From Candidatus Gottesmanbacteria bacterium (GTDB lineage: Bacteria; Patescibacteriota; Microgenomatia; JAMCYU01), in contig JAZDMI010000021.1 of the NCBI GenBank assembly GCA_043801155.1, forward strand, positions 194,683-258,682: a DNA stretch of 64,000 bases, read 5' to 3'. Positions 4,689-58,306 of the stretch are shown piece by piece. The notes below the pieces were generated by a model that saw only the letters and a list, made by a program, of their open reading frames with translations, searched no databases and had not been told where the DNA came from. How positions within the stretch are numbered: the stretch's first letter is position 1; every line of letters starts with the position of its first letter. Position numbers and translations under genes: made by a program.

Positions 4689-5648
4689 ATGTCAAACACG
4701 AAATATCTAATAGTTGGTGGAGCGGGATTTATCGGATCGCATCTTTGTGATGAACTTCTCAATAGGGGCGATGAGGTTTTTTGTATTGATAATTTTATTA
4801 CCGGAAATAAAAAAAACATCGAACACCTTATTAAAAACTCATCATTTCATCTTATCGAATGGGATATTACTAAAACATTAGATAAAAATCTTCAATCTCA
4901 AATATCTACTGTTCAGTTTATTTATCATTTAGCCTCGCCTGCCAGCCCGATACAGTATCAAAGATTCCCGATTGAAACTTTATTAGCCAACTCACTGGGA
5001 ACATACAATCTTTTAATGTTGGCTAAAGAAATTAATGCCAGATTTTTATATGCTTCCTCCAGCGAAATCTATGGTGATCCGTTACAACATCCTCAAAAAG
5101 AGCCATATTGGGGTAATGTCAATCCGATTGGTATTCGTTCTTGTTATGATGAAGGGAAAAGATTCGGTGAAGCGATTATAATGGCGTTTATTCGCAAGTT
5201 TGATCTTGATTGCCGGCTGGCAAGGATTTTTAATACTTATGGACCGAGAATGGAAAAAGAAGATGGTCGTGTTGTCTCTAATTTTATTGTCCAGGCATTG
5301 TTAGGCAAACCAATTACGGTGTATGGTGATGGTAGTCAAACAAGAAGCTTTTGTTTTGTATCTGATATGGTTGCGGGTTTAATGAAATTAATGGAAGAAG
5401 AAAAAGCTCGAGGAGAAGTTTTTAACTTGGGTAATCCTGAAGAATACACGATCCTAGAAATTGCGAGGAAAATTAAGGACCGAACCGCGTCTGTATCGGA
5501 AATAAAATTTAATGATTTACCAGAAGATGATCCTGTCCGGCGCCAACCGGATATTACTCGGGCTAAGCAGATTTTAGGATGGCAGCCGATCATTAGTATT
5601 GATCAGGGTCTTGGTCAAACGATTAAGTATTTTGAATCTATTTTATGA
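4689..5648 (+). CDS. uxs: UDP-glucuronate decarboxylase (UDP-xylose synthase, UXS/ArnA-decarboxylase family)
   Basis: VGGAGFIGSHLCDELL Rossmann motif and the UXS hallmark SCYDEGKRFGEA (catalytic YxxxK within YDEGKR), about 320 aa. Located downstream of ugd, which supplies UDP-GlcA. Confidence 0.75.
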   Translation: MSNTKYLIVGGAGFIGSHLCDELLNRGDEVFCIDNFITGNKKNIEHLIKNSSFHLIEWDITKTLDKNLQSQISTVQFIYHLASPASPIQYQRFPIETLLANSLGTYNLLMLAKEINARFLYASSSEIYGDPLQHPQKEPYWGNVNPIGIRSCYDEGKRFGEAIIMAFIRKFDLDCRLARIFNTYGPRMEKEDGRVVSNFIVQALLGKPITVYGDGSQTRSFCFVSDMVAGLMKLMEEEKARGEVFNLGNPEEYTILEIARKIKDRTASVSEIKFNDLPEDDPVRRQPDITRAKQILGWQPIISIDQGLGQTIKYFESIL

Positions 5649-6772
5649 AAGTTGTTATAATTTTACCTACTTATAATGAGAAAGGGAACATTAAACTTCT
5701 CATTGAGCAAATCGAAAAGATTTTTGATCGGATAAATAATTATTCATTTGATATTTTAGTTGTCGATGATTCATCTCCTGATGGGACAGCCTCGGAAGTT
5801 TCAATTGTTCAGAATACATATAAGAACGTTTATCTCTTGGTAAATAAAAAGAAAATCGGTTTAGGTAAAGCATTATTAGTTGGTATGGACTATGCTATCC
5901 AAAAATTGCACGCAGAAGTTCTTCTTGAAATGGATGCTGATTTATCTCATGATCCGAAAAAAATTCCGGAATTTCTTGAAAAAATTGACAAAGGTGCAGA
6001 TTTTGTTATCGGTAGTCGTTATATTAAAGGTGGTTCGATTCCGGAGCGGTGGGGAATTCACCGAAAACTTTTTAGCCGGATTGGTAATATACTGGTTAGG
6101 AGCATTTTGGGAATTTTCCGAATTCATGAATGGACCAGTGGTTTTAGAGCCGTAAGAAGTCGTTTTTTTGAAGACTCTAAAAATGATTTATCTGATTTTA
6201 GCGGCTATACTTTTCAAGTTGCCTTTCTTTATAAAAGTCTTATGAGAGGAGCTAAAATTGTCGAGGTCCCGATTAATTTTTCGGAACGATATTACGGCCG
6301 TTCTAAACTTGCCCCATTAGAATATATATCTAATTTACTTTTTTATCTTATAACTACCCGACTCAATGAATTATGGAAGAATGGATTTATAAAATTTTGT
6401 ATTGTCGGAACAATCGGTTTTTTGGTCAATCTAGTCGGTTTGGAATTCTTTTTCAATTTAGGTGTAAGACCAGGTCCGGCTGCTGCATTAGGAGCAGAAA
6501 TAGCCATTGTGTCGAATTTCTTGTTTAATAATTTTTGGACTTTTTCTGGCGAAAAAATAGTAACAATAACAAGATTAATTATGAAATTTATTCAATTTAA
6601 TGTAACCTCTGCAGGAGCGGTGCTTATACAAGGAATAGTCGTTGGATTAGGAACTCATATTTATGGGGATGAATCACGGCGAATTTTTTTAGTTCTGGCG
6701 ATTATTTTTTTCATTATTCCCTACAGCTGGTTTATCTATAACCGAATTATTTGGAAAACTCATGGAAAATGA
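5645..6772 (+). CDS. GT2 polyprenyl-phosphate glycosyltransferase (Dpm1/GtrB/ArnC-like) fused to a C-terminal GtrA-like 4-TM flippase domain
   Basis: N-terminal VVIILPTYNEKGNI...VVDDSSPDGT (GT2 DxD region), EMDADLSHDP, GSRY. The C-terminal 120 aa (FIKFCIVGTIGFLVNLVGLEFFF...) match GtrA-family topology. ATGA overlap with uxs. Confidence 0.7.
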   Translation: MKVVIILPTYNEKGNIKLLIEQIEKIFDRINNYSFDILVVDDSSPDGTASEVSIVQNTYKNVYLLVNKKKIGLGKALLVGMDYAIQKLHAEVLLEMDADLSHDPKKIPEFLEKIDKGADFVIGSRYIKGGSIPERWGIHRKLFSRIGNILVRSILGIFRIHEWTSGFRAVRSRFFEDSKNDLSDFSGYTFQVAFLYKSLMRGAKIVEVPINFSERYYGRSKLAPLEYISNLLFYLITTRLNELWKNGFIKFCIVGTIGFLVNLVGLEFFFNLGVRPGPAAALGAEIAIVSNFLFNNFWTFSGEKIVTITRLIMKFIQFNVTSAGAVLIQGIVVGLGTHIYGDESRRIFLVLAIIFFIIPYSWFIYNRIIWKTHGK

Positions 6773-10111: not shown

Positions 10112-10876
10112 ATGAACAATAATAAAATCTACGTTTCTGTAATTATTCCTTGTTACAACGAGGAACAAAATATTAAAACAGGTATTCTTGATAAGGTCTA
10201 TGCTTATCTTGAGAAACAGAATTATTCCTGGGATGTAAATATTGTTGATGATGGTTCAAGTGATAATAGCGTTCGTCTGGTCGAAAAATTTATTAGTGGC
10301 CATCCCAATTTTTCATTAATCAGAAATCCTCATCAAGGAAAAGCAGCTACCGTTATTTCGGGCATGCTTCAAGCAAAGGGGAAATATGTCCTTTTTAGTG
10401 ATTTTGATCAAGCTACGCCAATTGAGGAAATCGAGAAAGTTTTACCATGGTTTGATCAAGGTTTTGATATAATAATTGGCTCTCGAAGTAGTCACCGGAA
10501 AGGAGCACCGTTATCTAGATTAATTATTGCCAGAGGATTTATGTTACTTAGGCATTTAGTATTAGGTCTTGAAGGAATTTCTGATACTCAATGCGGTTTT
10601 AAGGCTTTTAAAAATGATGTCGCCAATAAGCTATTTGGTTTTTTAAGATTATACGGAGAGAAAAAAAGTGTATCTGGCCCGCTTGTTACTGCCGGTTTTG
10701 ACATTGAACTTCTTTTTTTAGCTAAAAAATTAGGTTTTAAAATTAAAGAAGTGCCAGTTGAATGGCATTATGTTGAGACCAGAAGGGTAAATCCGGTAAA
10801 AGATTCATGGTATGGTTTTTGGGATTTAATTTTGATTCGGTTAAATGAGATCCGTGGTCTTTATGATAAAAAATAG
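10112..10876 (+). CDS. GT2 glycosyltransferase (polyprenyl-phosphate sugar synthase-like)
   Basis: VSVIIPCYNEEQNI...IVDDGSSDNS, DFDQATP, GSRS motifs of Dpm1/CsbB-type GT2. Confidence 0.7.
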   Translation: MNNNKIYVSVIIPCYNEEQNIKTGILDKVYAYLEKQNYSWDVNIVDDGSSDNSVRLVEKFISGHPNFSLIRNPHQGKAATVISGMLQAKGKYVLFSDFDQATPIEEIEKVLPWFDQGFDIIIGSRSSHRKGAPLSRLIIARGFMLLRHLVLGLEGISDTQCGFKAFKNDVANKLFGFLRLYGEKKSVSGPLVTAGFDIELLFLAKKLGFKIKEVPVEWHYVETRRVNPVKDSWYGFWDLILIRLNEIRGLYDKK

Positions 10877-12044
10877 ATTCTTATTATTTGTTATATTCTA
10901 TATATTTACCATTATTAGCCTTTTCTTTTACTCTTTTACGCAAGTAGACCTTAACTTAACCTTATCCAAATCTTCCAAAATTCAGGAACTTGAAAAAGCA
11001 TTTATCCAAATTGGATATTTTAATCGACCACTCTCAACAACTATTTTTATTATCTTAATTATTTTACTTTTTATGGCTTATTTTATTATTCTTTCGCTGG
11101 TATATAAGAAAATAATCCCACGCCGTCATATTTGGATATTGATTATAGTAACAACAATATTACTATTATTTTCGTATCCGGCATTTTCTCATGATATCTT
11201 TAATTATATGTTCTGGGCGAGGATTTTTACCCATTATGGTCTTTCTCCATATCAATTTCGCGCGCTTGATTTTCCGGCTGATACCTGGACCCGCTTTATG
11301 CATTGGACCCATACCACATATAATCACGGACCTTTATATCTTATTATTAGTTTTATTCCCTCCTTTTTGGGATTAAATAAATTTGTTTTGACACTGATGA
11401 ATTTTAAACTATTGAACATTGGTGCTTATTTGGGGAGTATCTTTTTTATTAATAAAATTACCAAAAAGATCGATAATCAACATAATTTATTAGCGGTTAG
11501 TTTTTTTGCCTTTAATCCGGTGGTGATAATTGAATCTTTAGTTAGCGCCCACAATGATATCTTAATGCTTTTCCTTGCCTTAATATCGATATATTTTTTA
11601 ATCAGCAAAAAATATATTGCCTCATTTGTATTTTTAATATTATCCGCCGGGATTAAGTTTGTGACAATTATATTTGTGCCGCTGTATATATATTTTTTAC
11701 TTAAGAAAAAGGAAGATTTTAATATGCTTTTAAAATTAACGATTGTTTTTTATTTAATCGGTTTAATCCCGTTGATTTATCAGCGGGAACCATATCCATG
11801 GTATTTTATTCCGCTAATCGGGTTTGCCAGTCTTTCTTTTAAGGATTATTTTATAAGATTAATTTTTATTGGTTTATCTTGCGGATTGTTATTAAGGTAT
11901 GCCCCATATCTATTTTTTGGTGACTATAAGCCACCAGTTCCTCTGATAACCCTTTGGCTTACCATCGCTGCCCTAGTTATCTCTATACTAGTTTGGATCA
12001 TTAGCCAACTTCATACTTTTAAGATTTTCAAAGAGGAAACATGA
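10845..12044 (+). CDS. Polytopic membrane protein, putative GT-C glycosyltransferase ('family E' paralog 1); start may be the internal ATG at 10863
   Basis: Multi-TM. Motifs FSHDIFNYMFWARIF and SAHNDILMLFLALISIYFLISKK are mirrored in ORF 58835-59959 (FSNDIFNYMATARV, SSHNDIVMMFFVLFSLLLIKK). Confidence 0.5.
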   Translation: MRSVVFMIKNRFLLFVIFYIFTIISLFFYSFTQVDLNLTLSKSSKIQELEKAFIQIGYFNRPLSTTIFIILIILLFMAYFIILSLVYKKIIPRRHIWILIIVTTILLLFSYPAFSHDIFNYMFWARIFTHYGLSPYQFRALDFPADTWTRFMHWTHTTYNHGPLYLIISFIPSFLGLNKFVLTLMNFKLLNIGAYLGSIFFINKITKKIDNQHNLLAVSFFAFNPVVIIESLVSAHNDILMLFLALISIYFLISKKYIASFVFLILSAGIKFVTIIFVPLYIYFLLKKKEDFNMLLKLTIVFYLIGLIPLIYQREPYPWYFIPLIGFASLSFKDYFIRLIFIGLSCGLLLRYAPYLFFGDYKPPVPLITLWLTIAALVISILVWIISQLHTFKIFKEET

Positions 12045-13123
12045 GGTTAAGACTCGAACTGATATTGTTGGTAATTATCCTGCTTATTAATCTTAGTTTC
12101 CGAATTTATAATTTTAGAATCGAATATCTAACAAAATTTGATCCTGTTTATTGGCAAAACCGTTATCTTCAATCACAATGGGTTGATCCTCAATCAAAGA
12201 ATTCAATCGGTGATGATGGTCTCTATGCGTACGCCGGATGGGCATATATTACTGGTCACGATCCGACGACTCTTAACGCGGAAATGCCCCCATTGGGGAA
12301 ATATATAATCGGACTTTCTATTTTAATCTTCCACAATCAGAATATATATGCTCTGACTATCGGTCTTTTATGCTTACTTTTCTTTTATAAATTAAATTTT
12401 CTTATACTAAAGAATAAACTGTGGTCTCTTATCCCGGTAGTAGTTTTTTCTTTTGAACCGTTGTTTTATCAACAATTGAGAGCGCCCTATCTTGATACTT
12501 TATATCTTCTTTTGCTGATGTTAACTTTCTTTAGTTTTTTAAAAAAGAAATTTTTCTTAACAGGTCTATTTATAGGACTAATGGCCTTGACTAAAAACTC
12601 TGCCTCTACATTTTTACTTTTGGGATTAACTTTAGTCGGGTATTTATTTATTACGGAACGTGAACAAATAATCAAATTTATTTTAAATCTGCCGGTGGCA
12701 ATAATAATATTCATTCTGGGGTACAGCCGATATTTTATATTGGGGCACAATTTAAGGGAATTTTTAGGTGTGCAAAAATGGATACTGAATTTCTATAGCA
12801 TCGGAGCAAAGGGTAGCCTGGGCATGGTTATGCCGATGTTTTTTAATCATTGGCAAACATGGTGGAATGGCGTGATTAAGATTTCTGAATGGCAAATTAC
12901 TTGGCCGGTAACGTTGGTATTCAGTATTTTGTATATAGTATTTAGTATTTTTCGACATAAGTTTGACGCAAGTTTGTTAATAGTTATTTGGCTTATTATT
13001 TTTATTTCCTTTTTAAGTTTTATTCCTGTTTGGCCGAGATATTTCTTGCTGATTTTACCATTTACTTATCTACTAACAATTAATTTGGTCAAAGAAACAG
13101 TTAGTAATATAATAAGTAGATAG
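12041..13123 (+). CDS. PMT/GT39-like membrane glycosyltransferase (short form)
   Basis: Loop motif DDGLYAYAGWAYITGHDPTTLNAEMPPLGKYIIG resembles the PMT-family D-E ... hPPLgK signature. 360 aa, multi-TM. Confidence 0.45.
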   Translation: MRLRLELILLVIILLINLSFRIYNFRIEYLTKFDPVYWQNRYLQSQWVDPQSKNSIGDDGLYAYAGWAYITGHDPTTLNAEMPPLGKYIIGLSILIFHNQNIYALTIGLLCLLFFYKLNFLILKNKLWSLIPVVVFSFEPLFYQQLRAPYLDTLYLLLLMLTFFSFLKKKFFLTGLFIGLMALTKNSASTFLLLGLTLVGYLFITEREQIIKFILNLPVAIIIFILGYSRYFILGHNLREFLGVQKWILNFYSIGAKGSLGMVMPMFFNHWQTWWNGVIKISEWQITWPVTLVFSILYIVFSIFRHKFDASLLIVIWLIIFISFLSFIPVWPRYFLLILPFTYLLTINLVKETVSNIISR

Positions 13124-14622: not shown

Positions 14623-16980
14623 ATGATTTCCTCCTTAAAAAAAAGATGGCCAATATTATTTTTTCTCGTTTTCTTATTAATTTTCTTTCGTAAAACATTT
14701 TTTGCCGGGCTATTACCAATTCCATCTGACCTACTAGTCTCATGGTTTTTTCCTTATTCCTCAGGGGGGTTTATTGATTACAATTCCTGGACTACCCATA
14801 AAGGCTTAGTGGCCGACGATGCCGTGCGTCAACAATATCCATGGAAAACATTTAGTGCCAAGCAGTGGGAAAATGGCAATGCGCCGCTTTGGAATCCTTA
14901 TGCTTTTTCAGGTTACCCGCAGTTAGCGAATCTACAAACGGGAGCCTTTTATCCTCTAAATTTTTTATTTATTCTAATCGATCCAAAGATAGCCTGGACA
15001 ATACTAATTATGGCTCAACCACTATTGTCGTTTATTTTTATGTATCTTTTCTTGAAAACACTGCGTCTTTCTCAAATAAGTGCTGCCTTTGGCAGTCTTA
15101 TCTTTATAGGAATGACATTTGAAATGCTCTGGTTAGAACAAATGATAATTGGACATACGACTTTATGGTTACCTTTAGTTTTATTATGTATTCAAAAAGC
15201 ATCAGAGGGAAAAAAGAAATGGGCGGTTTTAGGAATCGTTGCCTTAACCATGTCTATTTTGGCTGGTTATGCCCAAACATCATTATATGTCGTTCTGATA
15301 GCCTTATCATATTTTATTTATAAATTATTTTACGTTAATAATAAAAAAGAATTTATTACTATTGGAATAGTGCTGTTTGTATTCCCACTTTTATTATCGG
15401 CAATACAATTATTACCGGTTTTTGAAATTTATAATTTTTCTGCCCGAGAGGGAGAAGCATCCCAAGCCTTATTTGGTAAATTTTTAGCTACCCCAAGACA
15501 ATTATTAACTCTATTTTCATCAGATATCTTTGGTAACGTTGCTACAAAAAATTTCTGGGGCGATCAATATACTGATTTTAACCTTTTTTTTGGCATAATA
15601 GCGTTATTAGTAATAGTGACCGGTATCAGAACAATGATAATTAGTAGATTCAATCTACGAGAATGCAAATTGTTTATTATTTTAGGATTGGTTGGTTTAG
15701 CCCTAGCGATTCCGCCGCTTGGTTTTCTTCCTCTTATTTTAAATATTCCGATACTTTCCACCGGAGTTCCGGCAAGATTTATCTTTATTTTTCAATTCTG
15801 TGCCTGTATTGTTGCAGCCTTTTGTTTTGATTGGATAATAAAGGAAAAATTAAATCGATTTTCGATTAAACCCGCGACTCTAATTTTTATTTTTATTATC
15901 TTATTATCCTTGAATTTCTTCTTTTTAGCTCGTGTTACTCCAAACATAGCCAATAAAACAAATTATCTTGTTAGTCTTCGTAATTTAGTTTTAACTATCG
16001 GTATTGCAGGTTCTGGTTTATTGGGATTATATAGTTTACGGTTTTCAAAGATAAGATATGCCGGAATGATATTTATCATCATATTGGCTGCACTAGAATA
16101 CCTCTATTTGGGAAATAAATACTTGCCATTTGCTAAAAAAGAATATTTATTTCCTGATCATGTACTTTTAACTTTTTTAAAAGAGCAACCGGGAATAGAC
16201 CGATTTTGGGGAGAAGGATCAGCAAAAATTGGCACAAATATACCTACCTACTATGGACTTTATTATCCCGAAGGTTACGATTCTCTATATATTAAGCGTT
16301 ATGGAGAGCTAGTAAATGCTGCATATGATGGTCAAATTACCAAAAAAATTCCCCGAAGTGATGTTAATATTAATGAAAAGTCTTTATATAAAGAAAGATT
16401 ACTTGACATACTAGGAGTAAAATTCATCTTAGACAAAAATGATATACCTAAATCGGAGTTTGAACCAGAAGACTGGAAGTTTACTCCGGATCGTTATAAA
16501 TTAATTTGGCAGCGTGAGAAATTTAAAGTTTATGAAAATCTTTATTCTTGGCCAAGGATCTATTTTGCCCAAGATATTATCGTTAAGGATAATGATCAGG
16601 AGATAATTAATGAAATTTATAAAAGTAAGGGAAAAAATATTGCCGTAATAGAAAAACCATTAGAGGAAAATTTTAAACCCGATAATCTGGGTAAAATAAA
16701 CCTACTCAAATATTCTCCAAATAAAATTATTATAAATAGCCAATCTCAGGAGCAAGGATTTTTAGTCATATCTGATAATTACTTTCCCGGGTGGGAAGCC
16801 TATATCGATAATCAAAAGACAACTATTTATCGGACAAATTATACTTTTCGTGGTATCAGTGTTCCTGCCGGAGATCATCAAATCATATTTTCTTATAATC
16901 CATTTTCTTTTCGTTTGGGATTTGTTATTTCATTAATTAGCTTATTTGGGATTATAGCAATTTACTTTATCGTCTTATGA
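14623..16980 (+). CDS. YfhO-family membrane glycosyltransferase (GT-C)
   Basis: 785 aa. N-terminal YfhO signature YPWKTF...NGNAPLWNPYAFSGYPQLANLQTGAFYPLNFLF. C-terminal YFPGWEAYIDNQKTTIY...AGDHQIIFSYNP module. Confidence 0.75.
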   Translation: MISSLKKRWPILFFLVFLLIFFRKTFFAGLLPIPSDLLVSWFFPYSSGGFIDYNSWTTHKGLVADDAVRQQYPWKTFSAKQWENGNAPLWNPYAFSGYPQLANLQTGAFYPLNFLFILIDPKIAWTILIMAQPLLSFIFMYLFLKTLRLSQISAAFGSLIFIGMTFEMLWLEQMIIGHTTLWLPLVLLCIQKASEGKKKWAVLGIVALTMSILAGYAQTSLYVVLIALSYFIYKLFYVNNKKEFITIGIVLFVFPLLLSAIQLLPVFEIYNFSAREGEASQALFGKFLATPRQLLTLFSSDIFGNVATKNFWGDQYTDFNLFFGIIALLVIVTGIRTMIISRFNLRECKLFIILGLVGLALAIPPLGFLPLILNIPILSTGVPARFIFIFQFCACIVAAFCFDWIIKEKLNRFSIKPATLIFIFIILLSLNFFFLARVTPNIANKTNYLVSLRNLVLTIGIAGSGLLGLYSLRFSKIRYAGMIFIIILAALEYLYLGNKYLPFAKKEYLFPDHVLLTFLKEQPGIDRFWGEGSAKIGTNIPTYYGLYYPEGYDSLYIKRYGELVNAAYDGQITKKIPRSDVNINEKSLYKERLLDILGVKFILDKNDIPKSEFEPEDWKFTPDRYKLIWQREKFKVYENLYSWPRIYFAQDIIVKDNDQEIINEIYKSKGKNIAVIEKPLEENFKPDNLGKINLLKYSPNKIIINSQSQEQGFLVISDNYFPGWEAYIDNQKTTIYRTNYTFRGISVPAGDHQIIFSYNPFSFRLGFVISLISLFGIIAIYFIVL

Positions 16981-18533
16981 AAAAAGAAATCCTATTTGTA
17001 CGTCTTCGTCAATTATTTTGGCCAATGTTATTCTTAATGTTATTTCTTATACCAATTATTTATCCCTTGTTTAAACAGGGAATGTTTATAAGCGACGATG
17101 GCGAATGGATGATTATCAGATTTTCTGCATTTCATCAGGCACTTCGTGAAGGTCAATTTCCGGTCCGCTGGTTAGGACGATTATGTTATGAATATGGTTA
17201 TCCGGTAGCTAATTTCCTATATCCTGGATTTATGTATCTAGCGGAAATACCAAAAATATTAGGTTTTAGTTTTATCAATTCAATTAAAATTATCTTAGGA
17301 TTTTCATTAATATCGTCTGCAGTATTTTCGTATTTATGGTTAAATAAATTCTTTACCCGAAAGACTGCCTTTCTTGGCGCCTTATTTTATCTTTATGCTC
17401 CTTACCATCTATGGGATGTCTATAAAAGAGGTTCGGTCGGAGAAGTTTTGGCCCTAGCAGTTGTTCCTTTTATTTTATGGGCCCTGGAGAAAAAAAGACT
17501 CTTTATATTTTCTTTAGGGATGGCTATACTTATTGTTTCCCATAACACACTAGCTCTATTATTTCTACCCCTAATTATAATTTATGCTTTTTTTAAAAAA
17601 ACCTTTTCTACCTACTTCTTGCTGTTTGCTACTGTTTTAGGCCTTGGTCTGGCGGCCTTTTTTTGGATTCCCGCGCTATATGATTTACAGTATACTCGTT
17701 TTAGCGATACTCAAGTATCAAATTTTAGCCATTTTTTTTCTAGTCTAGAATTATTAGGATGGCCGACAATAATTATTTTAGTAATAAGCGGATTAACTCT
17801 ACTTCCTTTCAAATATATTTATCATGATAATATCTTCTGGCTTTTCTGGTTAACCGGAATTAGTACCGCGTTCTTAGCTTTACCGCAAAGTTATATTATT
17901 TGGCAATACATACCAACCAATTTTATTCAGTTTCCTTTCCGGTTTTTGTCGATAACTATTATTTGTGGTGCATATTTAATCGGTTGGATAGTTGATCGAA
18001 TATTTATTAATAAACAAAGGCTTATGATTTCTCTTCTGGGAATAATATTATTAATCTATGCCTTTCCCTACTTAAGACCACCGGATTTTGTAAATAAAGG
18101 AGATATATTTTATACCACTAATGAAGATACGACGACAGTTCAAAGCGAGTATCTTCCTCTATGGGTAAAATCTAAGCCAAGTGAACGACCACAGACACTA
18201 TTTGAAATAAATAAAGGCCGAGGGAAAATTGACTATCAATACGCAAATTCACGTCAAATAAAACTTATTTATAATGCCCTGATTCCAATTCAGGTAAAAA
18301 TCAACCGTTTTTATTTTCCCGGATGGTACGCCACTATTGACGGTCAAAAGACAGCAATTTCTTTTGACAACCCGCAAGGTATAATGATAGTATCATCGCC
18401 AGCCGGCAAGCACTCAATGGAAATTGTCTGGAGAGAAACACCGATACGGAAATTAAGTAATTTAATCAGCCTATTAAGCGTGGGTATTTTGATAATTTGG
18501 TTTTTACAAAAGCACTTATCACCTAATGATTAA
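16977..18533 (+). CDS. 'Family B' polytopic membrane protein: distinct N-terminal domain plus YfhO-type C-terminal module (putative GT-C glycosyltransferase)
   Basis: N-terminal DDGEWMIIRFSAFHQALREGQFPVRWLGRLCYEYGYPVANFLYPGF. C-terminal FYFPGWYATIDGQKTAI...PAGKHSMEIVW. Shares FWIPA and FPFRF internal motifs with the other family B members. Confidence 0.55.
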   Translation: MKKEILFVRLRQLFWPMLFLMLFLIPIIYPLFKQGMFISDDGEWMIIRFSAFHQALREGQFPVRWLGRLCYEYGYPVANFLYPGFMYLAEIPKILGFSFINSIKIILGFSLISSAVFSYLWLNKFFTRKTAFLGALFYLYAPYHLWDVYKRGSVGEVLALAVVPFILWALEKKRLFIFSLGMAILIVSHNTLALLFLPLIIIYAFFKKTFSTYFLLFATVLGLGLAAFFWIPALYDLQYTRFSDTQVSNFSHFFSSLELLGWPTIIILVISGLTLLPFKYIYHDNIFWLFWLTGISTAFLALPQSYIIWQYIPTNFIQFPFRFLSITIICGAYLIGWIVDRIFINKQRLMISLLGIILLIYAFPYLRPPDFVNKGDIFYTTNEDTTTVQSEYLPLWVKSKPSERPQTLFEINKGRGKIDYQYANSRQIKLIYNALIPIQVKINRFYFPGWYATIDGQKTAISFDNPQGIMIVSSPAGKHSMEIVWRETPIRKLSNLISLLSVGILIIWFLQKHLSPND

Positions 18534-20232
18534 AAAGCTATTACCATTAATATTGATTATTATTTTAAGCTGGTGGGCAATAAATAGTCTTTTCCATACT
18601 GGTTTTTTCCCAATGCACGACGATGAGCAGATCGCCAGACTTTATGAGCTTCATCAGACGCTAATTAATGGTCAATTTCCTCCCCGGTGGATATCTAATT
18701 TGGGTTTTGGTTTTGGATATCCATTCTATAATTTTTATCCACCATTAGTTTATTATTTTGGCGAAGTTTTTCATCTGATCGGAATCAATCTTATCCTATC
18801 GACGAAACTAGTAATAATTTTAGGGACGTTATTATCAGGTATCTTTATTTATTTATTAGCTAAAGAATTTTTTGGTCGAATTGGAGGAATTATTGCGGCA
18901 ATATTTTATATTTATACCCCCTATCATGCTTTAGATTTATACGTTAGGGGAGCTTTGGCAGAATTTTTCTCTGGTGTCTTTATCCCGGCATGCCTTTGGT
19001 CAACGGTCAGGCTTATTCGTACCAAGGATATAAAATGGCTTATTATTAATAGTGTATTTTTATCATGTTTAGTATTAAGTCATAATTTAATCGCGATTGC
19101 GTTTATACCATTTTATTTATTATGGATAGTATTTTTTCTTTTTAAAGAACAAAAAAGAAAAAGATCAACTTATCTATTATTAGGGTCGATTATTTTAGCT
19201 TTTGGTTTAAGTGCCTATTTTGCGTTGCCAGCAATTATCGAGAAGAAATATACCTTGGTAGATACGATATTAACCGGAGAGCTAGCCTCATATAAACTTC
19301 ATTTTGTTTATCTTCGGCAATTTTGGAATTCGCCATGGGGTTATGGTGGCTCAATATACGGTCTTCATGACGGTATGTCTTTTGAGGTTGGCAAGATTCA
19401 TTTAATTTTAGCTATCCTAGGAGGGATACTGGGTTTTTACCATATCTTTAAAAAAGAAAAAACTGGTTTACAATTTACCTTTTTCTTTATATTATTTTTA
19501 CTTTCATTATTCATGGCTAGTTTTCACTCTGATTTTATCTGGAGCAAAATTCAACCATTATGGTATTTACAATTTCCCTGGCGTTTTTTAATATTTGCAT
19601 CCATTTTTGCCTCTTTATTGGCTGGTCGAATAATTGATTATTTTATGAGGATTACCAGAATTCATAGAGGAATCAAATGGAGCTTGGTAATTATAGTTAT
19701 TGTCACCGTCATTATCCTTAACAAAGATTATTTTCAGCCAGCCCGCTATTTAGAAGTCAGTGACAGAAATTACACCTCTAAAGAAGATTTGCAATGGCGG
19801 GTAAGCAAGATGTCATTTGAATACGTCCCCAAGGGAGTAAGGACTGTATATTCTGATATCGGGACAACCCAGATAGACATTACTAAGGCAGAATTACCGG
19901 AAAAATCCTTTAAATCTTCAGCTGTGGCAACGATTATTGAAATAGTAAACAAACCGCATTTTAAAAAATATCAAGTTTCCGGGAGTGGCACAATTCTAAC
20001 AATTAATACCTATAATTTCCCGGGTTGGGAAGTTACCCTTGACGATCAAAAAGTTGACATTAATGATAACAATAAATTTAAATTGATCACGATTAAGGTC
20101 CCCAAGGGCGAGCATATGGTTATTGCCCAATTTAACAATACCCCAATAAGAACGATAGGAAATTCTATAACATTATCTAGTATAATTTTATTGATATTAT
20201 TAATAATATGGAGAAAAAACAAAAAGTTTTAA
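18526..20232 (+). CDS. 'Family B' polytopic membrane protein (paralog 2)
   Basis: FPMHDDEQIARLYELHQTLINGQFPPRWISNLGFGFGYPFYNFYPPL; internal YFALPA and QFPWRF; C-terminal YNFPGWEVTLDDQKVDI...PKGEHMVIAQF. Confidence 0.55.
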   Translation: MIKKLLPLILIIILSWWAINSLFHTGFFPMHDDEQIARLYELHQTLINGQFPPRWISNLGFGFGYPFYNFYPPLVYYFGEVFHLIGINLILSTKLVIILGTLLSGIFIYLLAKEFFGRIGGIIAAIFYIYTPYHALDLYVRGALAEFFSGVFIPACLWSTVRLIRTKDIKWLIINSVFLSCLVLSHNLIAIAFIPFYLLWIVFFLFKEQKRKRSTYLLLGSIILAFGLSAYFALPAIIEKKYTLVDTILTGELASYKLHFVYLRQFWNSPWGYGGSIYGLHDGMSFEVGKIHLILAILGGILGFYHIFKKEKTGLQFTFFFILFLLSLFMASFHSDFIWSKIQPLWYLQFPWRFLIFASIFASLLAGRIIDYFMRITRIHRGIKWSLVIIVIVTVIILNKDYFQPARYLEVSDRNYTSKEDLQWRVSKMSFEYVPKGVRTVYSDIGTTQIDITKAELPEKSFKSSAVATIIEIVNKPHFKKYQVSGSGTILTINTYNFPGWEVTLDDQKVDINDNNKFKLITIKVPKGEHMVIAQFNNTPIRTIGNSITLSSIILLILLIIWRKNKKF

Positions 20233-20930
20233 TTGTTATTCCTGTATTTAATGAAGAGAAAGATCTTCTCGAGTGTATTCAACGTCTAAAAAAGGTATTA
20301 GAAATTATTGATACCGTAACCTGGCAAATTGTTATTGCTGATAATGCCTCCAATGACAATACCCCTGATATTGCAAGGTTAATATCCAAAGATGATACAA
20401 GACTAATTTATCTGCGCCTGGAACAAAAGGGACGTGGCCGGGCAATAAAAAAAGCCTGGACACAATTTCCTTCAGATATATATGTATATATGGATGTAGA
20501 TTTATCAACCGATCTTAAACATCTTCCAGCCCTTATTAAAGCGATCGATAAATATGATATTGCTATAGGTTCTAGGCTCCATCTTGGGTCAAAAGTTGTC
20601 GGTAGATCACTAAAGCGGGAGATTATATCCCGCACTTATAATATATTAATCGGGCTTATGTTCTTAACTCATTTTTCCGACGCTCAATGCGGCTTCAAAG
20701 CTGTCAATGATAATATTGTCAAGAATTTATTACCAAAAATCATCGATAACGATTGGTTTTTTGACAGTGAACTCCTGATCGTTGGCGAAAAAAGTGGTTA
20801 TAAAATTTATGAAGAACCGGTTTTTTGGGTTGATAATCCGGGCTCAACAGTACGGGTATTAAAGACAATCACCGGCGATCTACGAGGATTGCTACGACTC
20901 TTCATTTCTAGGCCTTGGAATAAGGAGTAA
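20208..20930 (+). CDS. GT2 glycosyltransferase (polyprenyl-phosphate sugar synthase-like)
   Basis: VLIVIPVFNEEKDL...IADNASNDNT, YMDVDLSTD, GSRL motifs; 240 aa. Confidence 0.7.
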   Translation: MEKKQKVLIVIPVFNEEKDLLECIQRLKKVLEIIDTVTWQIVIADNASNDNTPDIARLISKDDTRLIYLRLEQKGRGRAIKKAWTQFPSDIYVYMDVDLSTDLKHLPALIKAIDKYDIAIGSRLHLGSKVVGRSLKREIISRTYNILIGLMFLTHFSDAQCGFKAVNDNIVKNLLPKIIDNDWFFDSELLIVGEKSGYKIYEEPVFWVDNPGSTVRVLKTITGDLRGLLRLFISRPWNKE

Positions 20931-20942
20931 ATATATCTTTGT

Positions 20943-22430
20943 TTGGAGATAAAATCGCTACCTGTTATAATTTATGTTATGGACGAAATCGGGATTGAGG
21001 AAGTTAAAAAGCGTGCCGTTAAGGGAATTCTTGCTTTAACATCTCGGACTTTCATTCTGCAACTGATATCGTTTTTAACTACCTTCCTATTAACTATTTT
21101 TTTAGCACCATCTATTTTCGGTGTTTTCTTCGTGGTTTCAGCCGTCATATCTTTTTTAGGTTACTTTTCCGATATCGGACTAGCGGCAGCATTAGTTCAG
21201 AAGCAAGAACCAGTAAGCGATGATGATTTAAAGACTACCTTTACCATCCAGCAAATCCTTGTTGGTATAGTTGTTATTGTTGCCCTTGTATTATCTAGGC
21301 CTTTTAGTCTATTTTATAATTTAGATTCAACAGGCCTATGGTTATTTAGAGCTCTAGTTATATCTTTTTTCTTATCTTCATTAAAAACTATACCCTCCGT
21401 TTTGTTAGAGAGGCGATTAGACTTTAATCGTTTAGTCATTCCCCAGATAATAGAAACAGCTCTTTTTGGTTTTGTGGCTGTTGTATTAGCCATGAAGGGT
21501 TTTGGAATTATGTCCTTTACTTGGGCTGTATTAGTGAGGGGGACTAGCGGTTTAATTGCCATCTATATTTTATCACCTTGGTCTATTGGATTTGGTTTCT
21601 CTAGAGGCACTGCCAATAAGCTTCTTTCTTTTGGTATTCCGTTTCAGGTAAATTCATTATTGGCTTTAATTAAAGATGACTTGTTTACGATATTTTTAGG
21701 TAAGATCTTACCCTTTGCCCAGGTAGGTTACATTGGTTGGGCTAAAAAATGGGCGGAGTTTCCACTAAGACTGGTAATGGATAATGTCATCCGGGTAACA
21801 TTTCCAGCGTACGCACGATTGCAAAAATCTCCAACTGATCTTTCTAAAGCATTAGAGAAATCAATATTTTTCTTAGCCTTTTTGATTTTACCAATAAGTG
21901 TCGCCTTAATTTTTTTGATAAAACCATTAGTTTCTATAATCCCCAGGTATAGTAAATGGGATCCGGCGCTTTTTTCCTTTTATCTTTTTGTTATTACTGG
22001 CATTTTTGCCGGTCTATCGACACCATTAACTAATATCTTAAATGCAATCGGGAAAATTAAAATTACCCTTTGGTTAATGGTGATGTGGACGATACTGACA
22101 TGGATTATTTCACCTTTGTTAGTTTTTAAATTCGGATTTAATGGCGTAGCCATGGGAGGATTATTAATCGGAACAACTGTTTTTGTTCCAATAATAGCGA
22201 CCAAGAGATTTATAAGTTTTAATATCTTTAGCCAAATAATTTCTCCATTGATGGCATCATTGGTATTAGCCTTTTTCTTATATTTTGCAGGTTCTTCTGT
22301 TAAATCAATATTTTCTTTAATTACTATAGCTTTAATCGGTAGTCTGATCTACTTAATTTTTATTTATATCTTTACTAAGGGTAAAATATTGAAGGAGGTA
22401 AAAAAATTATGGCAAAACTCTCGGTCGTAA
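20943..22430 (+). CDS. Polysaccharide/oligosaccharide flippase (Wzx-like, MOP superfamily)
   Basis: About 495 aa with 12-14 TM helices; KKRAVKGILALTSRTF N-terminal pattern typical of 'polysaccharide biosynthesis protein' flippases. The true start may be the internal Met (MDEIG...). Confidence 0.65.
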   Translation: MEIKSLPVIIYVMDEIGIEEVKKRAVKGILALTSRTFILQLISFLTTFLLTIFLAPSIFGVFFVVSAVISFLGYFSDIGLAAALVQKQEPVSDDDLKTTFTIQQILVGIVVIVALVLSRPFSLFYNLDSTGLWLFRALVISFFLSSLKTIPSVLLERRLDFNRLVIPQIIETALFGFVAVVLAMKGFGIMSFTWAVLVRGTSGLIAIYILSPWSIGFGFSRGTANKLLSFGIPFQVNSLLALIKDDLFTIFLGKILPFAQVGYIGWAKKWAEFPLRLVMDNVIRVTFPAYARLQKSPTDLSKALEKSIFFLAFLILPISVALIFLIKPLVSIIPRYSKWDPALFSFYLFVITGIFAGLSTPLTNILNAIGKIKITLWLMVMWTILTWIISPLLVFKFGFNGVAMGGLLIGTTVFVPIIATKRFISFNIFSQIISPLMASLVLAFFLYFAGSSVKSIFSLITIALIGSLIYLIFIYIFTKGKILKEVKKLWQNSRS

Positions 22431-26222: not shown

Positions 26223-26989
26223 AAGATGATATGATTTCGGTAATTATTATCGCTAAAAACGAAGAAAATAATATTGCGCAATGTTTAAAATCAGTATCAT
26301 TTGCCGACGAAAAAATAGTTATTGATTCAGGATCGTCAGATAATACAGCTAATATTGCTGGACATTTCGGAGCAAAAGTTTTTGTTCATGATTTCAAAGA
26401 CTTTTCTAACCAGAGAAATTTTGCCCTTTCGAAGTCTTCGGGAGACTGGATATTGTATATTGATGCCGATGAGCGTGTGACCGATAATCTTCGTGACGAA
26501 ATGATGAAAATAATTTCTTCCGCGCAATCCGATAGTGCATATAATATTCCTAGACAAAATATTCGTCTTGGCGGTCATATAATGCATTTTGGTGGTTGGT
26601 GGCCTGATTATGTCACCCGCTTATTTAAAAGAAGTGAATTAAAGAATTGGTACGGTGAAGTTCATGAAAGTCCGAATATCAACGGATCAGTAGGTCGATT
26701 AGCTAACCCCTTACTGCATTACGGTCGTGATCTTAATCGAATCGTTGAAAAAACAATCGAGTGGTCCGCTGTAGAAGCAAGATTATTGTATAAGGCGAAT
26801 CACCCACCGGTTGCTTGGTGGCGATTATTAAAAATTAGCCTTGATGAATTTTTTCGTCGTTATATTATCCTTCAGGGATTTCGTGATGGTACACCCGGCT
26901 TGATAGAGGCAATCTACCAGTCGTTTAGCCGATTTATAACATATGCCAGATTATGGGAGCTTCAACAAAATAATGAGATTAAAACATGA
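26219..26989 (+). CDS. GT2 glycosyltransferase (WaaE/KdtX-like), paralog 2 of 3
   Basis: ISVIIIAKNEENNIAQCL...VIDSGSSDNT, YIDADER, GFRDGTPGLIEA. Confidence 0.65.
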   Translation: MKDDMISVIIIAKNEENNIAQCLKSVSFADEKIVIDSGSSDNTANIAGHFGAKVFVHDFKDFSNQRNFALSKSSGDWILYIDADERVTDNLRDEMMKIISSAQSDSAYNIPRQNIRLGGHIMHFGGWWPDYVTRLFKRSELKNWYGEVHESPNINGSVGRLANPLLHYGRDLNRIVEKTIEWSAVEARLLYKANHPPVAWWRLLKISLDEFFRRYIILQGFRDGTPGLIEAIYQSFSRFITYARLWELQQNNEIKT

Positions 26990-46317: not shown

Positions 46318-47112
46318 ATGAAATTATCAGTAGTTTTAGCAACCTATAACGAAGAAAATAATATCGGGCAATGTCTACAATCGGTTCGGGATTTGGCCGA
46401 TGAGATAATTATAGTTGATGGAAAATCAACAGATAGAACAGTTGAAATTGCTAAACAATATGATGCAAAGATAATTGTTACTGATAATCCGCCAATATTT
46501 CATATTAATAAACAAAAAGCAATTGATTTAGCTACCGGAGATTGGATTTTACAGCTCGATGCCGATGAAAGAGTAACGCTGGAGTTAAAAAAAGAAATTC
46601 TATCTGCTATCTGCTTACCACTATCTACTATCAACGGTTACTGGATTCCTAGAAAAAATTGGTTTTTGGGCAGATTTTTAATGAAGGGCGGTCAATATCC
46701 AGATTATACACTCCGGCTATACCGAAAAGGTAAAGGCAAACTTCCGTGTAAAAACGTTCATGAACAAGCCATCGTTGATGGTGAAGTGGGATATTTAAAA
46801 AATCCCTTGATTCATATGGCTGATATTAATATTAACCGTTATCTAAAGCGCTGGGACAGGTATACAAATTTATTAGCGGGTGAAATAAAAGATATACTAC
46901 AACAACAGAATATATTTATGAGGATAAGTACAGGAGGGATATATTTAATTATCAAGCCCTGGTATTGGTTTTTACTGACTTATTTTCGCCATAAAGGCTT
47001 TATGGATTCCTGGCAAGGATTTGTTTTTTCGCTATTTTCTGCTTGGCGTTTTCCGGTAGCCTATATTAAATATCTAATAAGGGGAGGTAAAATAACTTAT
47101 GAAAAATCCTAA
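46318..47112 (+). CDS. GT2 glycosyltransferase (WaaE/KdtX-like), paralog 3 of 3
   Basis: LSVVLATYNEENNIGQCL...IIVDGKSTDRT, QLDADER, GYWIPRKNWF. Confidence 0.65.
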   Translation: MKLSVVLATYNEENNIGQCLQSVRDLADEIIIVDGKSTDRTVEIAKQYDAKIIVTDNPPIFHINKQKAIDLATGDWILQLDADERVTLELKKEILSAICLPLSTINGYWIPRKNWFLGRFLMKGGQYPDYTLRLYRKGKGKLPCKNVHEQAIVDGEVGYLKNPLIHMADININRYLKRWDRYTNLLAGEIKDILQQQNIFMRISTGGIYLIIKPWYWFLLTYFRHKGFMDSWQGFVFSLFSAWRFPVAYIKYLIRGGKITYEKS

Positions 47113-47839
47113 TATTATTGTGGTCATGCCCGCTTTTAATGCCGAAAAAACCATTGAAAAAACTTATCAGGATCTTCCCCGTGACCTGATTAATGAAGTT
47201 ATTGTTGTCGACGATCAAAGTCGTGATAAAACTGTTGAAATAGCCAAAAAATTACACATTAAAACTTTTGTTCATCCGCAGAATCTTGGGTACGGAGGAA
47301 ACCAAAAAACCTGTTATTGGGAAGCATTAAAGAAAAATCCGGATGTCGTAGTCATGCTTCATCCCGATTATCAATATGATGCTACCAAAACCGCAGAATT
47401 AATTAAACCAATTCTGAATGGTGAATACGACTTGATGTTTGGTTCAAGAATTAGGACTAGAGAAGAGGCTTTAAAGGGAGGAATGCCATTAACAAAATAT
47501 CTTCTCAATCGAATTTTTTGTGTCATTGAAAATATTGTTTTAGGAGTTAACTTTACTGAGCATTTCAGTGGTTTCCGCGCTTACAGCCGTAAAGTATTAG
47601 AAACCGTTCCGTTCCAAAGATTTTCTAATGATTTCGTTTTTGATCAGGAAATGATGGCCTCCGCGATTGCGTTAGGTTTTAGGGTTGGCGAGACACCAAT
47701 TCCGGTTCGTTATTTTTCCGAAAGTTCTTCGATAAAGTATTTAGCCGGCTCAAAATTTCTTATGGAAACACTGCTTGTCCTTCTGCGATTTATACTAAAT
47801 AAAAATAACATTATCAAGGATAATATTTTTCGGGACTAA
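47099..47839 (+). CDS. GT2 glycosyltransferase (Dpm1/GtrB-like polyprenyl-phosphate sugar synthase)
   Basis: IIVVMPAFNAEKTI...VVDDQSRDKT, HPDYQYD, GSRI. Confidence 0.7.
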   Translation: MKNPNIIVVMPAFNAEKTIEKTYQDLPRDLINEVIVVDDQSRDKTVEIAKKLHIKTFVHPQNLGYGGNQKTCYWEALKKNPDVVVMLHPDYQYDATKTAELIKPILNGEYDLMFGSRIRTREEALKGGMPLTKYLLNRIFCVIENIVLGVNFTEHFSGFRAYSRKVLETVPFQRFSNDFVFDQEMMASAIALGFRVGETPIPVRYFSESSSIKYLAGSKFLMETLLVLLRFILNKNNIIKDNIFRD

Positions 47840-56672: not shown

Positions 56673-58306
56673 AAAAGCATCTCCCTCTTTTTATTCTTCT
56701 TATACTAGCGTTTATACCAATGCTTGATTTCTTTTATCCGGGATTACCTTTAACTCATGATGGTCAAGATCACGTTGCCCGGATAGCCAGTTTTTATCAA
56801 TCGTTGGTTGAAGGAAACCTCATTCCTAGATGGGCAGGTAATCTAAATTGGGGCTATGGACATCCAATCCTAATGTTTCTTTATCCCTTGTCATCCTACA
56901 CTGCGTCTTTTTTCCATATTCTTGGCCTAGACTTAGTTAATAGTATCAAAGTAGTTTTTGTTATAAGTTTTGTTTTTTCCGGATTATCGATGTATTTGTG
57001 GATAAGTAGTCTATGGGGACGGAAAGCAGGATTAGTATCAGGATTACTTTATATGTTTGCTCCTTACCATTTTGTAGATATATACGTTAGAGGTGCTATT
57101 GGGGAGAATTTGGCTTTTGTTTGGCCACCGCTAATATGTTATTTTGCCTATACATTATCAAAAAAAGTTAAATATCGTCATTTGCTGGGCTTAGCATTAT
57201 CATTTGCCGCTTTGATTTTATCCCACAATGCTTTAAGTATAATGTTTTTTCTTCCGATAATAGGTTATATGGTATTTTTAGTAATCGAGTCAAATAATAA
57301 AAAGCTGACCGCTTTCTGCTTTCTGCTTTCTTCGATTATCGGTTTAGGATTAAGCGCATTTTTTTGGATTCCTGCTTATTTTGAAGGCAAATACACTCTT
57401 CGAGATATTGTGACCAAAAATAATATTACTGGTTTTGTTGAGAATATCCAGCGTTTAATCTGGTTTCCTTGGAGTTATGATGGAGCCGATAATATTCCAG
57501 TCCAGCTTGGTATCATGCAATGGATAATAATTTTAATTAGCCCGCTCGTAATTTGGTTTTTTAGGCGAAAGAAGATGAGTTTTTGGAAATTTTTAGTATT
57601 TCTTCTATTTATATTTTGGGTGTCAATATTTATGATCCTGCCGGTATCCCGTCCGCTCTATAACGTTTTCCCGGCATTACAAAAGCTTCAGTTTAGCTGG
57701 CGTTTTTTATCATTGGCAATATTTACTCCGGCGATATTCGTCGGTGCATTAATATATTTATTTCCAGACAGGATCGGGACACTTTTTACATCAATAATAG
57801 TTATCGGAATATTGTTATTAAATAAAAATTATTGGCATGCTCAAAGTTATCTATATCAAAATGAATCATTTTACCAAGGAATTTATAATGGAACTACGGA
57901 TACTGGTGAAAGTGCACCCCGTTGGTCGGTTCGATTTATGGAAAAACGTCCAAAATCACATATAGAAGTTATTGATGGTCAGGCGAACATTAAAGAAATT
58001 AAGAGAAATACAAATGAACATCAATATGAGATCAATACCACCACAAAAACAAGAATCCGTGAAAATACTCTCTATTTCCCAGGCTGGCAGGTACTTATAG
58101 ATAATCAACCATCAGCAATTGAATTTCAAGACGAACACAACCGGGGATTAATAACATTTTTCGTCAAACCCGGTAAACATGTAGTTACCGTAAAATTTGG
58201 AGAAACAAAATTACGTTTGGTATCTGATATTATCAGTTTCATGAGTCTACTATTTTTAATAGGGACATTTTTCTTTAAAAAAAGAATATTAAATATTTCA
58301 AAATAA
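56669..58306 (+). CDS. 'Family B' polytopic membrane protein (paralog 5)
   Basis: LTHDGQDHVARIASFYQSLVEGNLIPRWAGNLNWGYGHPILMFLYPL; FFWIPA and QFSWRF; C-terminal LYFPGWQVLIDNQPSAI...KPGKHVVTVKF. Confidence 0.55.
   Translation: MKKHLPLFILLILAFIPMLDFFYPGLPLTHDGQDHVARIASFYQSLVEGNLIPRWAGNLNWGYGHPILMFLYPLSSYTASFFHILGLDLVNSIKVVFVISFVFSGLSMYLWISSLWGRKAGLVSGLLYMFAPYHFVDIYVRGAIGENLAFVWPPLICYFAYTLSKKVKYRHLLGLALSFAALILSHNALSIMFFLPIIGYMVFLVIESNNKKLTAFCFLLSSIIGLGLSAFFWIPAYFEGKYTLRDIVTKNNITGFVENIQRLIWFPWSYDGADNIPVQLGIMQWIIILISPLVIWFFRRKKMSFWKFLVFLLFIFWVSIFMILPVSRPLYNVFPALQKLQFSWRFLSLAIFTPAIFVGALIYLFPDRIGTLFTSIIVIGILLLNKNYWHAQSYLYQNESFYQGIYNGTTDTGESAPRWSVRFMEKRPKSHIEVIDGQANIKEIKRNTNEHQYEINTTTKTRIRENTLYFPGWQVLIDNQPSAIEFQDEHNRGLITFFVKPGKHVVTVKFGETKLRLVSDIISFMSLLFLIGTFFFKKRILNISK

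Follow-up and report, generated by a model that had tools for sequence, protein, structure and literature searches.

Introduction

YfhO (PF09586), a glycosyltransferase (GT) of the GT-C clan, transfers N-acetylglucosamine (GlcNAc) onto lipoteichoic acid in Bacillus subtilis and Staphylococcus aureus and modifies wall teichoic acid in Listeria monocytogenes, and the multi-component mechanism in which it acts with CsbB and GtcA has been reviewed (PMC8035078). In the case of GT136 (ORF12 of Citrobacter youngae O1), ribofuranose is added by a three-component system that also includes a lipid-sugar synthase and a flippase, and in solved GT-C enzymes the proposed catalytic aspartate follows the first transmembrane (TM) helix, TM1 (PMC11127046). 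The GT-C clan (CL0111) also contains the Pfam family PF10131, 'PTPS_related' (PTPS stands for 6-pyruvoyl-tetrahydropterin synthase), whose function is listed as unknown (PMC7801869). Here, we analyze six paralogous membrane proteins encoded in a stretch of 64,000 nucleotides, hereafter the window, from contig JAZDMI010000021.1 of a Candidatus Gottesmanbacteria metagenome-assembled genome (MAG, assembly GCA_043801155.1). A preliminary description of the window, made from the DNA letters alone, had grouped these proteins as 'family B', a name that we keep. All positions are window coordinates, and residue numbers are those of the protein encoded at 56669 unless stated otherwise.

We consider it likely that the six proteins are GT-C(A) membrane glycosyltransferases of the PF10131 family, sisters of YfhO, which move lipid-linked sugars to an acceptor at the outer face of the membrane. 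This reading draws on their paralogy, family assignment, fold, topology and residue conservation, on their homology to YfhO, and on their gene context and gene fusions.

Results

Six old paralogs in one window

In the window there are 49 open reading frames (ORFs) with a length of 150 aa or more, and almost all of them are on the + strand. The six family B ORFs of the preliminary description exist on this strand at the positions given in Table 1. Five are identical to GenBank proteins of the Candidatus Gottesmanbacteria MAG, whose contig has 272,544 bp, and the ORF at 38249 (547 aa) is 100% identical, across 99% of its length, to a GenBank protein of 544 aa. The mechanical ORF of paralog 6 starts from a TTG at 59641; the ATG at 59935 yields exactly the 558-aa GenBank protein, which backs the latter start.

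In an all-against-all BLASTP of the 49 ORFs, the six form a single tight cluster with full-length alignments (E 1e-36 to 1e-80), distinct from the four YfhO paralogs of the window. They are 26-32% identical to the first member and have 28 invariant columns in a MAFFT alignment of the six. Their relatedness is far above the chance level, and the grouping first proposed is thus sound. Each paralog is 48-62% identical to relatives in other organisms, which exceeds its identity to its siblings in the window, and the orthologues of paralog 5 are around 60% identical across Microgenomates. Since the outside relatives are closer than the siblings, the six represent long-separated subfamilies rather than products of recent duplication.

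Family assignment and spread

PF10131 is the best Pfam family for five of the six paralogs. Its scores across the six lie between 20 and 76.5 bits, and its gathering score of 26.4 bits is reached by four of the six (38.0, 76.5, 49.1, and 53.6 bits). The first position of the PF10131 model falls on residues 68-74, past the loop that carries the D...R...PRW residues. Because it begins after this point, the model misses the probable catalytic loop. The other Pfam matches of the six are to PMT_2, DUF6541, and YfhO, whose gathering score (28.5 bits) is reached only by the proteins at 47861 (29.4 bits) and 59935 (43.2 bits), the other four having no reported YfhO match. A scan of the six against NCBIfam gave no match. 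In GenBank, three paralogs are named '6-pyruvoyl-tetrahydropterin synthase-related', one 'glycosyltransferase family 39', and two 'hypothetical'; such inconsistent names across six paralogs are an annotation problem. The family, which the preliminary description could not assign to a named one, is therefore already catalogued, yet it is functionally uncharacterized. The latter point had been anticipated, and it agrees with the status of PF10131 as a family of unknown function in PMC7801869, the sole paper that we found to mention it, and with a profile search of the PDB sequences, which detected no solved relative (a chance match of 33 residues, with an E-value of 2.4, was the only one returned).

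At E <= 1e-3, a profile built from the six paralogs matched 25,805 representatives of clusters formed at 50% identity, of which 8,385 remained at E <= 1e-30. Most database relatives carry the PF10131 annotation, while about a quarter are listed without a precomputed Pfam match. The matches named after an organism are all from Patescibacteria (Gottesman-, Shapiro-, Levy-, Woese-, Beckwith-, and Roizmanbacteria). Among the best 80 related loci in species-representative genomes, we found solely names of Patescibacteria or Microgenomates type and the title 'uncultured Gammaproteobacteria'. The MAGs with the latter title (L008, L011, L012, L016, and many more) have family B loci of Microgenomates type, at 44-51% identity. 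These titles are probably taxonomic mislabels. A tblastn search of plasmids gave two marginal matches and was uninformative.

Conserved residues of the first outside loop

The block of the form HDG...PRW...G-x-G-Y-P reported to follow TM1 is real and is indeed placed right after this helix, but it is looser than first described, being a consensus and not a strict signature. In the alignment of the six, 'HDG' is exact in three paralogs and replaced by DDG, HDD, or ADN in the others, 'PRW' is found in five (the protein at 38249 reads VRY), and G-x-G-Y-P degenerates into EYGYP, GFGYP, GHGYM, GYGYP, GYGHP, and GFGVP. The most divergent block is that of paralog 3 (TADN...VRY...GHGYM). The residues of the block that are strictly invariant across the six are D31, R38, G49, R54, and G64. 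The later motifs (F/Y)FW(I/L)P(A/S) and QF(P/S)WR(F/Y) were also recovered, as FFWIPA-like and QFPWRF-like stretches with substitutions in all six.

To a large extent, these residues are conserved beyond the window. Among 412 aligned domains from 392 proteins, those conserved in at least 92% are D31, R38, R54, G64, K94, P132, R141, E146, P154, H186, P235, R345, P471, W473, and G502. D31, which lies 9 residues past TM1, is invariant in the six paralogs and present in 94% of the domains, whereas fewer than 85% of them keep the histidine of 'HDG'. Hence, of the histidine, aspartate, and arginine once thought invariant, the last two are so and the first is not.

Fold and topology

An AlphaFold2 model of the 56669 protein, computed from an alignment of 76 sequences, has a mean predicted local distance difference test (pLDDT) score of 93 and a predicted template modelling (pTM) score of 0.93. 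When it was compared with the PDB by Foldseek, the 31 best-ranked matches were all GT-C enzymes, and they include STT3 (E 4e-6, TM-score around 0.45), PglB, AftD, Pmt4, ArnT, DPY19, AftA, EmbB, and ALG9/12. Matches to transporters were not significant (E >0.1, probability <=0.14). The GT-C-like fold suspected at the outset is thus borne out by the model as by the Pfam clan, and the structural comparison with the PDB that had been recommended for this protein revealed no confident match to a fold other than that of glycosyltransferases.

Taken together, secondary structure, hydropathy, and the positive-inside rule give a topology of 12 TM helices in which the N- and the C-terminus are cytoplasmic. 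The first outside loop (EL1) has 66 residues (23-88), and additional outside segments span residues 229-281 and 324-342. Conservation mapped on this topology places the near-invariant polar residues all at the outer face. The assignment of the aspartate and arginine to the first extracytoplasmic loop, already made in the preliminary description, agrees with this topology and with the fusions of GT2 domains to the N-terminus presented below. The C-terminal part forms an outside beta-sandwich (residues 389-513 in this topology; Table 1), and the model of this domain in isolation has a pLDDT of 71.5, with a core around 90. A carbohydrate-binding role of the sandwich is supported by analogy only.

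A compact sister lineage of YfhO

Profile comparison by hhalign relates family B to the four YfhO paralogs of the window with a probability of 99.2% (E 1.3e-19). The alignment pairs EGQ..PRW...GyGyP in family B with nGn.PLWNPY.FsGyP in YfhO. It also pairs P235 with P265 and R345 with R385 in the core, and it shows that a C-terminal sandwich with YFPGW...G.H and the final TM helix are common to both families. With the balanced profile of the six paralogs (A1), the invariant D31 pairs with the invariant D66 of YfhO. A profile dominated by the 56669 protein (A2) paired the subfamily-specific D34 instead with D66 of YfhO and with the DE motif of PMT, which we treat as an artefact of profile composition.

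Similarity detected by BLASTP between the two families is confined to the last 35-120 residues (E 1e-4 to 3e-8). Around 270 residues of YfhO have no counterpart in family B, whose members have 518-568 aa versus around 770-830 aa. The YfhO signature PLWNPY.F.G.P.LAN.Q fails in family B, where the W and G.P are kept and NPY and LAN.Q are not. The preliminary description had used the absence of this signature to separate the family from the four YfhO paralogs, which are real (they start at 14623, 26986, 30353, and 32668). The separation stands, in that the two form distinct clusters, but the block after TM1 is homologous to the D...PLWNPY.F.G.P of YfhO. By these comparisons family B is a compact sister lineage of YfhO, neither unrelated to it nor merely a divergent form of it.

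Gene context

As a whole, the window is a single large glycan locus. It encodes ten GT2, two GT4, two Wzx-like proteins (the second one at 62667), a pair of ABC-2 exporter genes, a methyltransferase, and proteins of nucleotide-sugar metabolism that include RmlD-like and UDP-glucose dehydrogenase genes (rhamnose/UDP-GlcA). The GT-C clan accounts for at least 22 of the 49 ORFs (6 PF10131, 4 YfhO, around 9 PMT/PMT_2-like, and 3 PIG-V/GT87-like), and five of the GT2 genes resemble dolichol-phosphate mannose synthase (DPMS). This is unusually dense in GT-C and glycan genes for a genome of the Candidate Phyla Radiation (CPR), and we found no paper on the expansion of GT-C in Patescibacteria. The main features are listed in Table 1.

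Table 1. Features of the window, with coordinates in window positions
Feature	Coordinates	Strand	Remarks
Paralog 1, family B, 518 aa	16977..18533	+	GenBank 'hypothetical protein'; PF10131 20.2 bits, under gathering score
Paralog 2, family B, 568 aa	18526..20232	+	GenBank 'glycosyltransferase family 39 protein'; PF10131 38 bits, PMT_2 34 bits
Paralog 3, family B, 547 aa	38249..39892	+	Top PF10131 score of the six, 76.5 bits, E 2e-21
Paralog 4, family B, 545 aa	47861..49498	+	GenBank 'hypothetical protein'; YfhO (29.4 bits) scores above PF10131 (20.0 bits)
Paralog 5, family B, 545 aa	56669..58306	+	Modelled member; 12 TM helices, N-in/C-in
Paralog 6, family B, 558 aa	59935..61611	+	Above thresholds of PF10131 (53.6 bits) and YfhO (43.2 bits)
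EL1 block of paralog 5, residues 25-77: G..THDGQDHVARIASFYQSLVEGNLIPRWAGNLNWGYGHP...YP	56741..56899	+	D31, R38, R54, G64 near-invariant; proposed catalytic loop
EL1 block of paralog 1, residues 35-87: GMFISDDGEWMIIRFSAFHQALREGQFPVRWLGRLCYEYGYP...YP	17079..17237	+	
Outside C-terminal beta-sandwich of paralog 5, around residues 386-514, N..YFPGW and G.H	57824..58210	+	Tethered by the last TM helix (514-535)
GT2, 240 aa, directly 3' of paralog 2	20208..20930	+	Closest solved relatives: DPMS (5mlz), ArnC
DPMS-like GT2, 246 aa, directly 5' of paralog 4	47099..47839	+	Closest solved relatives: DPMS (5mlz), ArnC
'GT2b'-type GT2, 264 aa	46318..47112	+	
DPMS-like GT2, 254 aa	10112..10876	+	42% identical to GT2 domain of fusion P0261
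GT2 fused to GtrA/DPMS transmembrane domain	5645..6772	+	Candidate lipid-sugar synthase with flippase-type module
Wzx/MOP-type flippase candidate	20943..22430	+	Polysacc_synt_3
YfhO paralog, 785 aa, directly 5' of paralog 1	14623..16980	+	Representative of the sister family
Other YfhO paralogs	26986-29301, 30353-32671, 32668-35142		

Between 16977 and 20930 the genes overlap consecutively, by 4 nt between YfhO and paralog 1, by 8 nt between paralog 1 and paralog 2, and by 25 nt between paralog 2 and the GT2 gene, which suggests translational coupling in one operon. The product of this GT2 gene is, by its resemblance to DPMS and ArnC, a candidate polyprenyl-phosphate sugar synthase that may supply the donor. 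More generally, DPMS/ArnC-like GT2s, a GtrA domain, and Wzx-like genes are co-located with family B, as in a multi-component system.

Comparable neighborhoods are found in other genomes. Among the best 80 related loci, 73 include enough sequence to identify the downstream neighbor, and in 46 of these a GT2 of the 46318 type (GT2b) lies directly downstream of the family B gene, overlapping it or within 80 nt. PMT-like genes are present in 50 of the 80 loci and YfhO in 21. In metagenomes, three predicted fusion proteins (P0261, P0301, P0174) join an N-terminal GT2 domain to family B, which supports an inside N-terminus and a functional link of the family to GT2 enzymes. Two other predicted fusions (P0154, P0221) join family B to PMT_2. 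We also observed predicted multi-domain proteins of 1,100-3,300 aa (P0121-P0124) with 2-5 stretches that match the family B profile.

Several other genes of the window deserve mention. Three polytopic membrane ORFs (12041-13123, 24258-26222, and 36059-37588, with 360, 654, and 509 aa) have no Pfam match even at E 0.1, nor has the ORF of 226 aa at 37581-38261. All four lie among the glycosyltransferase genes and may be further unrecognized GT-C or polymerase/ligase-like proteins. The multi-TM paralogs at 10845-12044 and 58835-59959 are 36% identical and have only a weak match to GT87. The former shows weak BLAST similarity to the PIG-V-like protein at 49508-50602, and the latter adjoins and overlaps paralog 6 from upstream. 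Between paralog 5 and this membrane protein lies a DUF5667 protein of 175 aa with one TM helix (58311-58838). The only minus-strand genes of the window, at 39842-41290 and 41312-43009, both encode PMT_2/PMT-like GT-C proteins, and they suggest a local inversion in an otherwise co-directional locus.

Discussion

Proposed mechanism

For the donor type, the catalytic roles of the residues, and the acceptor, we infer a mechanism modelled on the YfhO/CsbB/GtcA and Gtr systems and on the position of the aspartate after TM1. The neighboring cytoplasmic GT2s of DPMS/ArnC type would load a sugar onto polyprenyl phosphate, a flippase of GtrA or Wzx type would carry the lipid-sugar to the outer leaflet, and the family B enzyme would then pass the sugar to an acceptor at the outer face. 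D31, just after TM1, would serve as the catalytic base, and both the lipid phosphate and the sugar would be bound by E146 and by the basic residues of the outer membrane boundary, R38, R54, K94, R141, H186, and R345. The C-terminal sandwich may have a part in placing the acceptor, although this role is a guess since the domain has no significant structural match. The paralogs probably differ in donor sugar, acceptor site, or both. As the acceptor, a surface glycopolymer is most likely, which may contain rhamnose and be exported by the ABC-2 or Wzx systems of the locus; the other possibility is a surface protein.

A number of observations weigh against the reading of family B as PF10131 glycosyltransferases that use lipid-linked sugars. 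Paralogs 16977 (20.2 bits) and 47861 (20.0 bits) score under the PF10131 threshold, and both the six and their database relatives match the model only from position 1 to around 290-333 of its 621 positions. Our search of the literature on PF10131 or 'PTPS_related' found no functional study. The DE motif of PMT aligns 3 residues from D31 and not on it. The sandwich has no significant match in the PDB, the best one (E 0.06) being to accessory domains of glycoside hydrolases. Finally, GT2b resembles GmaR and SunS rather than DPMS, and since it is the GT2 most commonly adjacent to family B, the partner that supplies the donor is uncertain.

Alternative explanations

A bolder version of our reading would have the Patescibacteria branch of PF10131 found a new CAZy-type GT-C family, and the locus encode, with at least 22 GT-C genes, a largely extracytoplasmic assembly line that makes a complex surface glycan out of lipid-linked monosaccharides, for which the synthesis of arabinan and mannan in mycobacteria would be the analogue. 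We regard this as doubtful, and we propose its signature, D-x6-R...P-R-W...K...YVRG..GE...SHN...QFPWRF, just as tentatively. If this is true, the ultra-small CPR bacteria would build their envelope by a logic that has yet to be described in them.

Family B might also use lipid-linked monosaccharides to assemble a surface glycan outside the cell, either its backbone or its branches, as AftD, Emb, and Mpt enzymes do, instead of decorating it with side sugars. The presence of AftD and AftA among the significant fold matches is consistent with such chain building, as are the numbers of genes, since at least 22 GT-C genes and five DPMS-like GT2s in 64 kb seem to exceed the needs of decoration. The age of the paralogs, each of them a subfamily that has orthologues of its own, would also be expected for linkage-specific steps. 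However, the cytoplasmic GT2 and GT4 genes, the ABC-2 exporter, and the Wzx genes fit an assembly inside the cell followed by decoration outside, and we consider chain building unlikely.

We find it rather improbable that family B is a divergent YfhO doing the job of YfhO, i.e., transferring GlcNAc or another monosaccharide from a C55-P-sugar onto lipoteichoic or wall teichoic acid. The two families share a strong profile homology that includes the EL1 motif and the C-terminal domain, two of the six paralogs are above the Pfam threshold of YfhO, the gene of paralog 1 shares 4 nt with a YfhO gene, and in 21 of the 80 related loci family B has YfhO as a neighbor. Yet the six and the four YfhO paralogs fall into separate clusters, with BLAST similarity only in the last 35-120 residues, and the six are around 270 residues shorter, lacking the extra helices and the large outside domain. 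They have RW instead of WNPY, and R38, R54, K94, R141, E146, and H186 are specific to them. That one locus encodes both families speaks for separate roles. Teichoic acids are not known from these bacteria, and this also counts against a YfhO-type activity.

The top structural matches of the model, STT3 and PglB (E 4e-6 to 5e-4), together with the few homologues that have a precomputed match to PF02516 (STT3), could point to oligosaccharyltransferases of the STT3/PglB/AglB type, which would take a preassembled glycan from its polyprenyl diphosphate carrier to proteins, for instance pilins or those of the S-layer. The TM-scores of around 0.45 correspond to the shared GT-C core only, and family B has a sandwich of around 125 residues in place of the large C-terminal alpha/beta periplasmic domain. 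A search by regular expressions found neither the WWDxG-type nor the DxD motifs in any of the six. EL1 has one invariant acidic residue and is dominated by basic ones, in which it seems to resemble the users of monophosphate sugars ArnT and PMT. We rejected this explanation, which is very unlikely, on the absence of its defining motifs. The last alternative, that the proteins are related to PTPS as in their GenBank name, or are non-enzymatic membrane proteins or transporters, draws on an inherited product name only and can practically be dismissed, as no PTPS catalytic domain was found by Pfam in the six at E up to 1, the fold is that of GT-C, the matches to transporters are not significant, and polar residues as strongly conserved as those at the outer face of the membrane typically mark an active site; 'PTPS_related' is a misnomer.

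Significance

The identification of family B as PF10131 proteins of the GT-C clan is solid and not surprising, its GT-C nature having been correctly recognized in the preliminary description. PF10131 is a very large family, with at least 8,385 clusters (50% identity) that match the profile of the six at E below 1e-30, and it bears a misleading name. That a genome of around 1 Mb has so dense an array of GT-C genes suggests a large investment of CPR/Patescibacteria in surface glycans, which may be important to their epibiotic lifestyle. The kinship with YfhO, the short list of near-invariant, outward-facing residues, and the GT2 fusions and neighbors make the family testable by mutagenesis and by assays of lipid-sugar transfer.

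Comparison with known GT-C enzymes

With STT3, PglB, and AglB, family B has in common the transmembrane core of GT-C(A) (Foldseek E 4e-6 to 1.5e-3), but it is only 11-14% identical to these enzymes, with a TM-score of around 0.45, and lacks their large periplasmic domain. The GT-C(A) fold is also that of ArnT, PMT/Pmt4, DPY19, and AftD, and the aspartate after TM1 is placed as in several solved GT-C structures. The donors of these enzymes are lipid-monophosphate sugars made by GT2s (ArnC, DPMS), homologues of which flank the family B genes. Profiles of family B and of the PMT-like paralogs of the window align with a probability of 91.5% (E 9e-7), a similarity seen at the profile level only. 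Compared with PMT, family B has no MIR domains and differs in its C-terminal domain. Its assignment to PMT/GT39 does not hold, as PMT_2 passes in the protein at 18526 only (34 bits) and most paralogs have no DE at the aligned position. GT136 is likewise a GT-C without an earlier CAZy family and has its proposed catalytic aspartate beside the first TM helix; it serves here as a model of characterization only.

The closest comparison is with YfhO. Family B does without the extra helices and the large outside domain of YfhO, has PRW where YfhO has PLWNPY, and its invariant R38, R54, K94, R141, E146, and H186 have no YfhO counterpart. Both families belong to the GT-C clan, however, and both have an aspartate in EL1 followed, after around 21 residues, by P-x-W and then by G-x-P. 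They also have a core proline and arginine at equivalent positions, the same C-terminal sandwich and last helix, and GT2 genes as neighbors.

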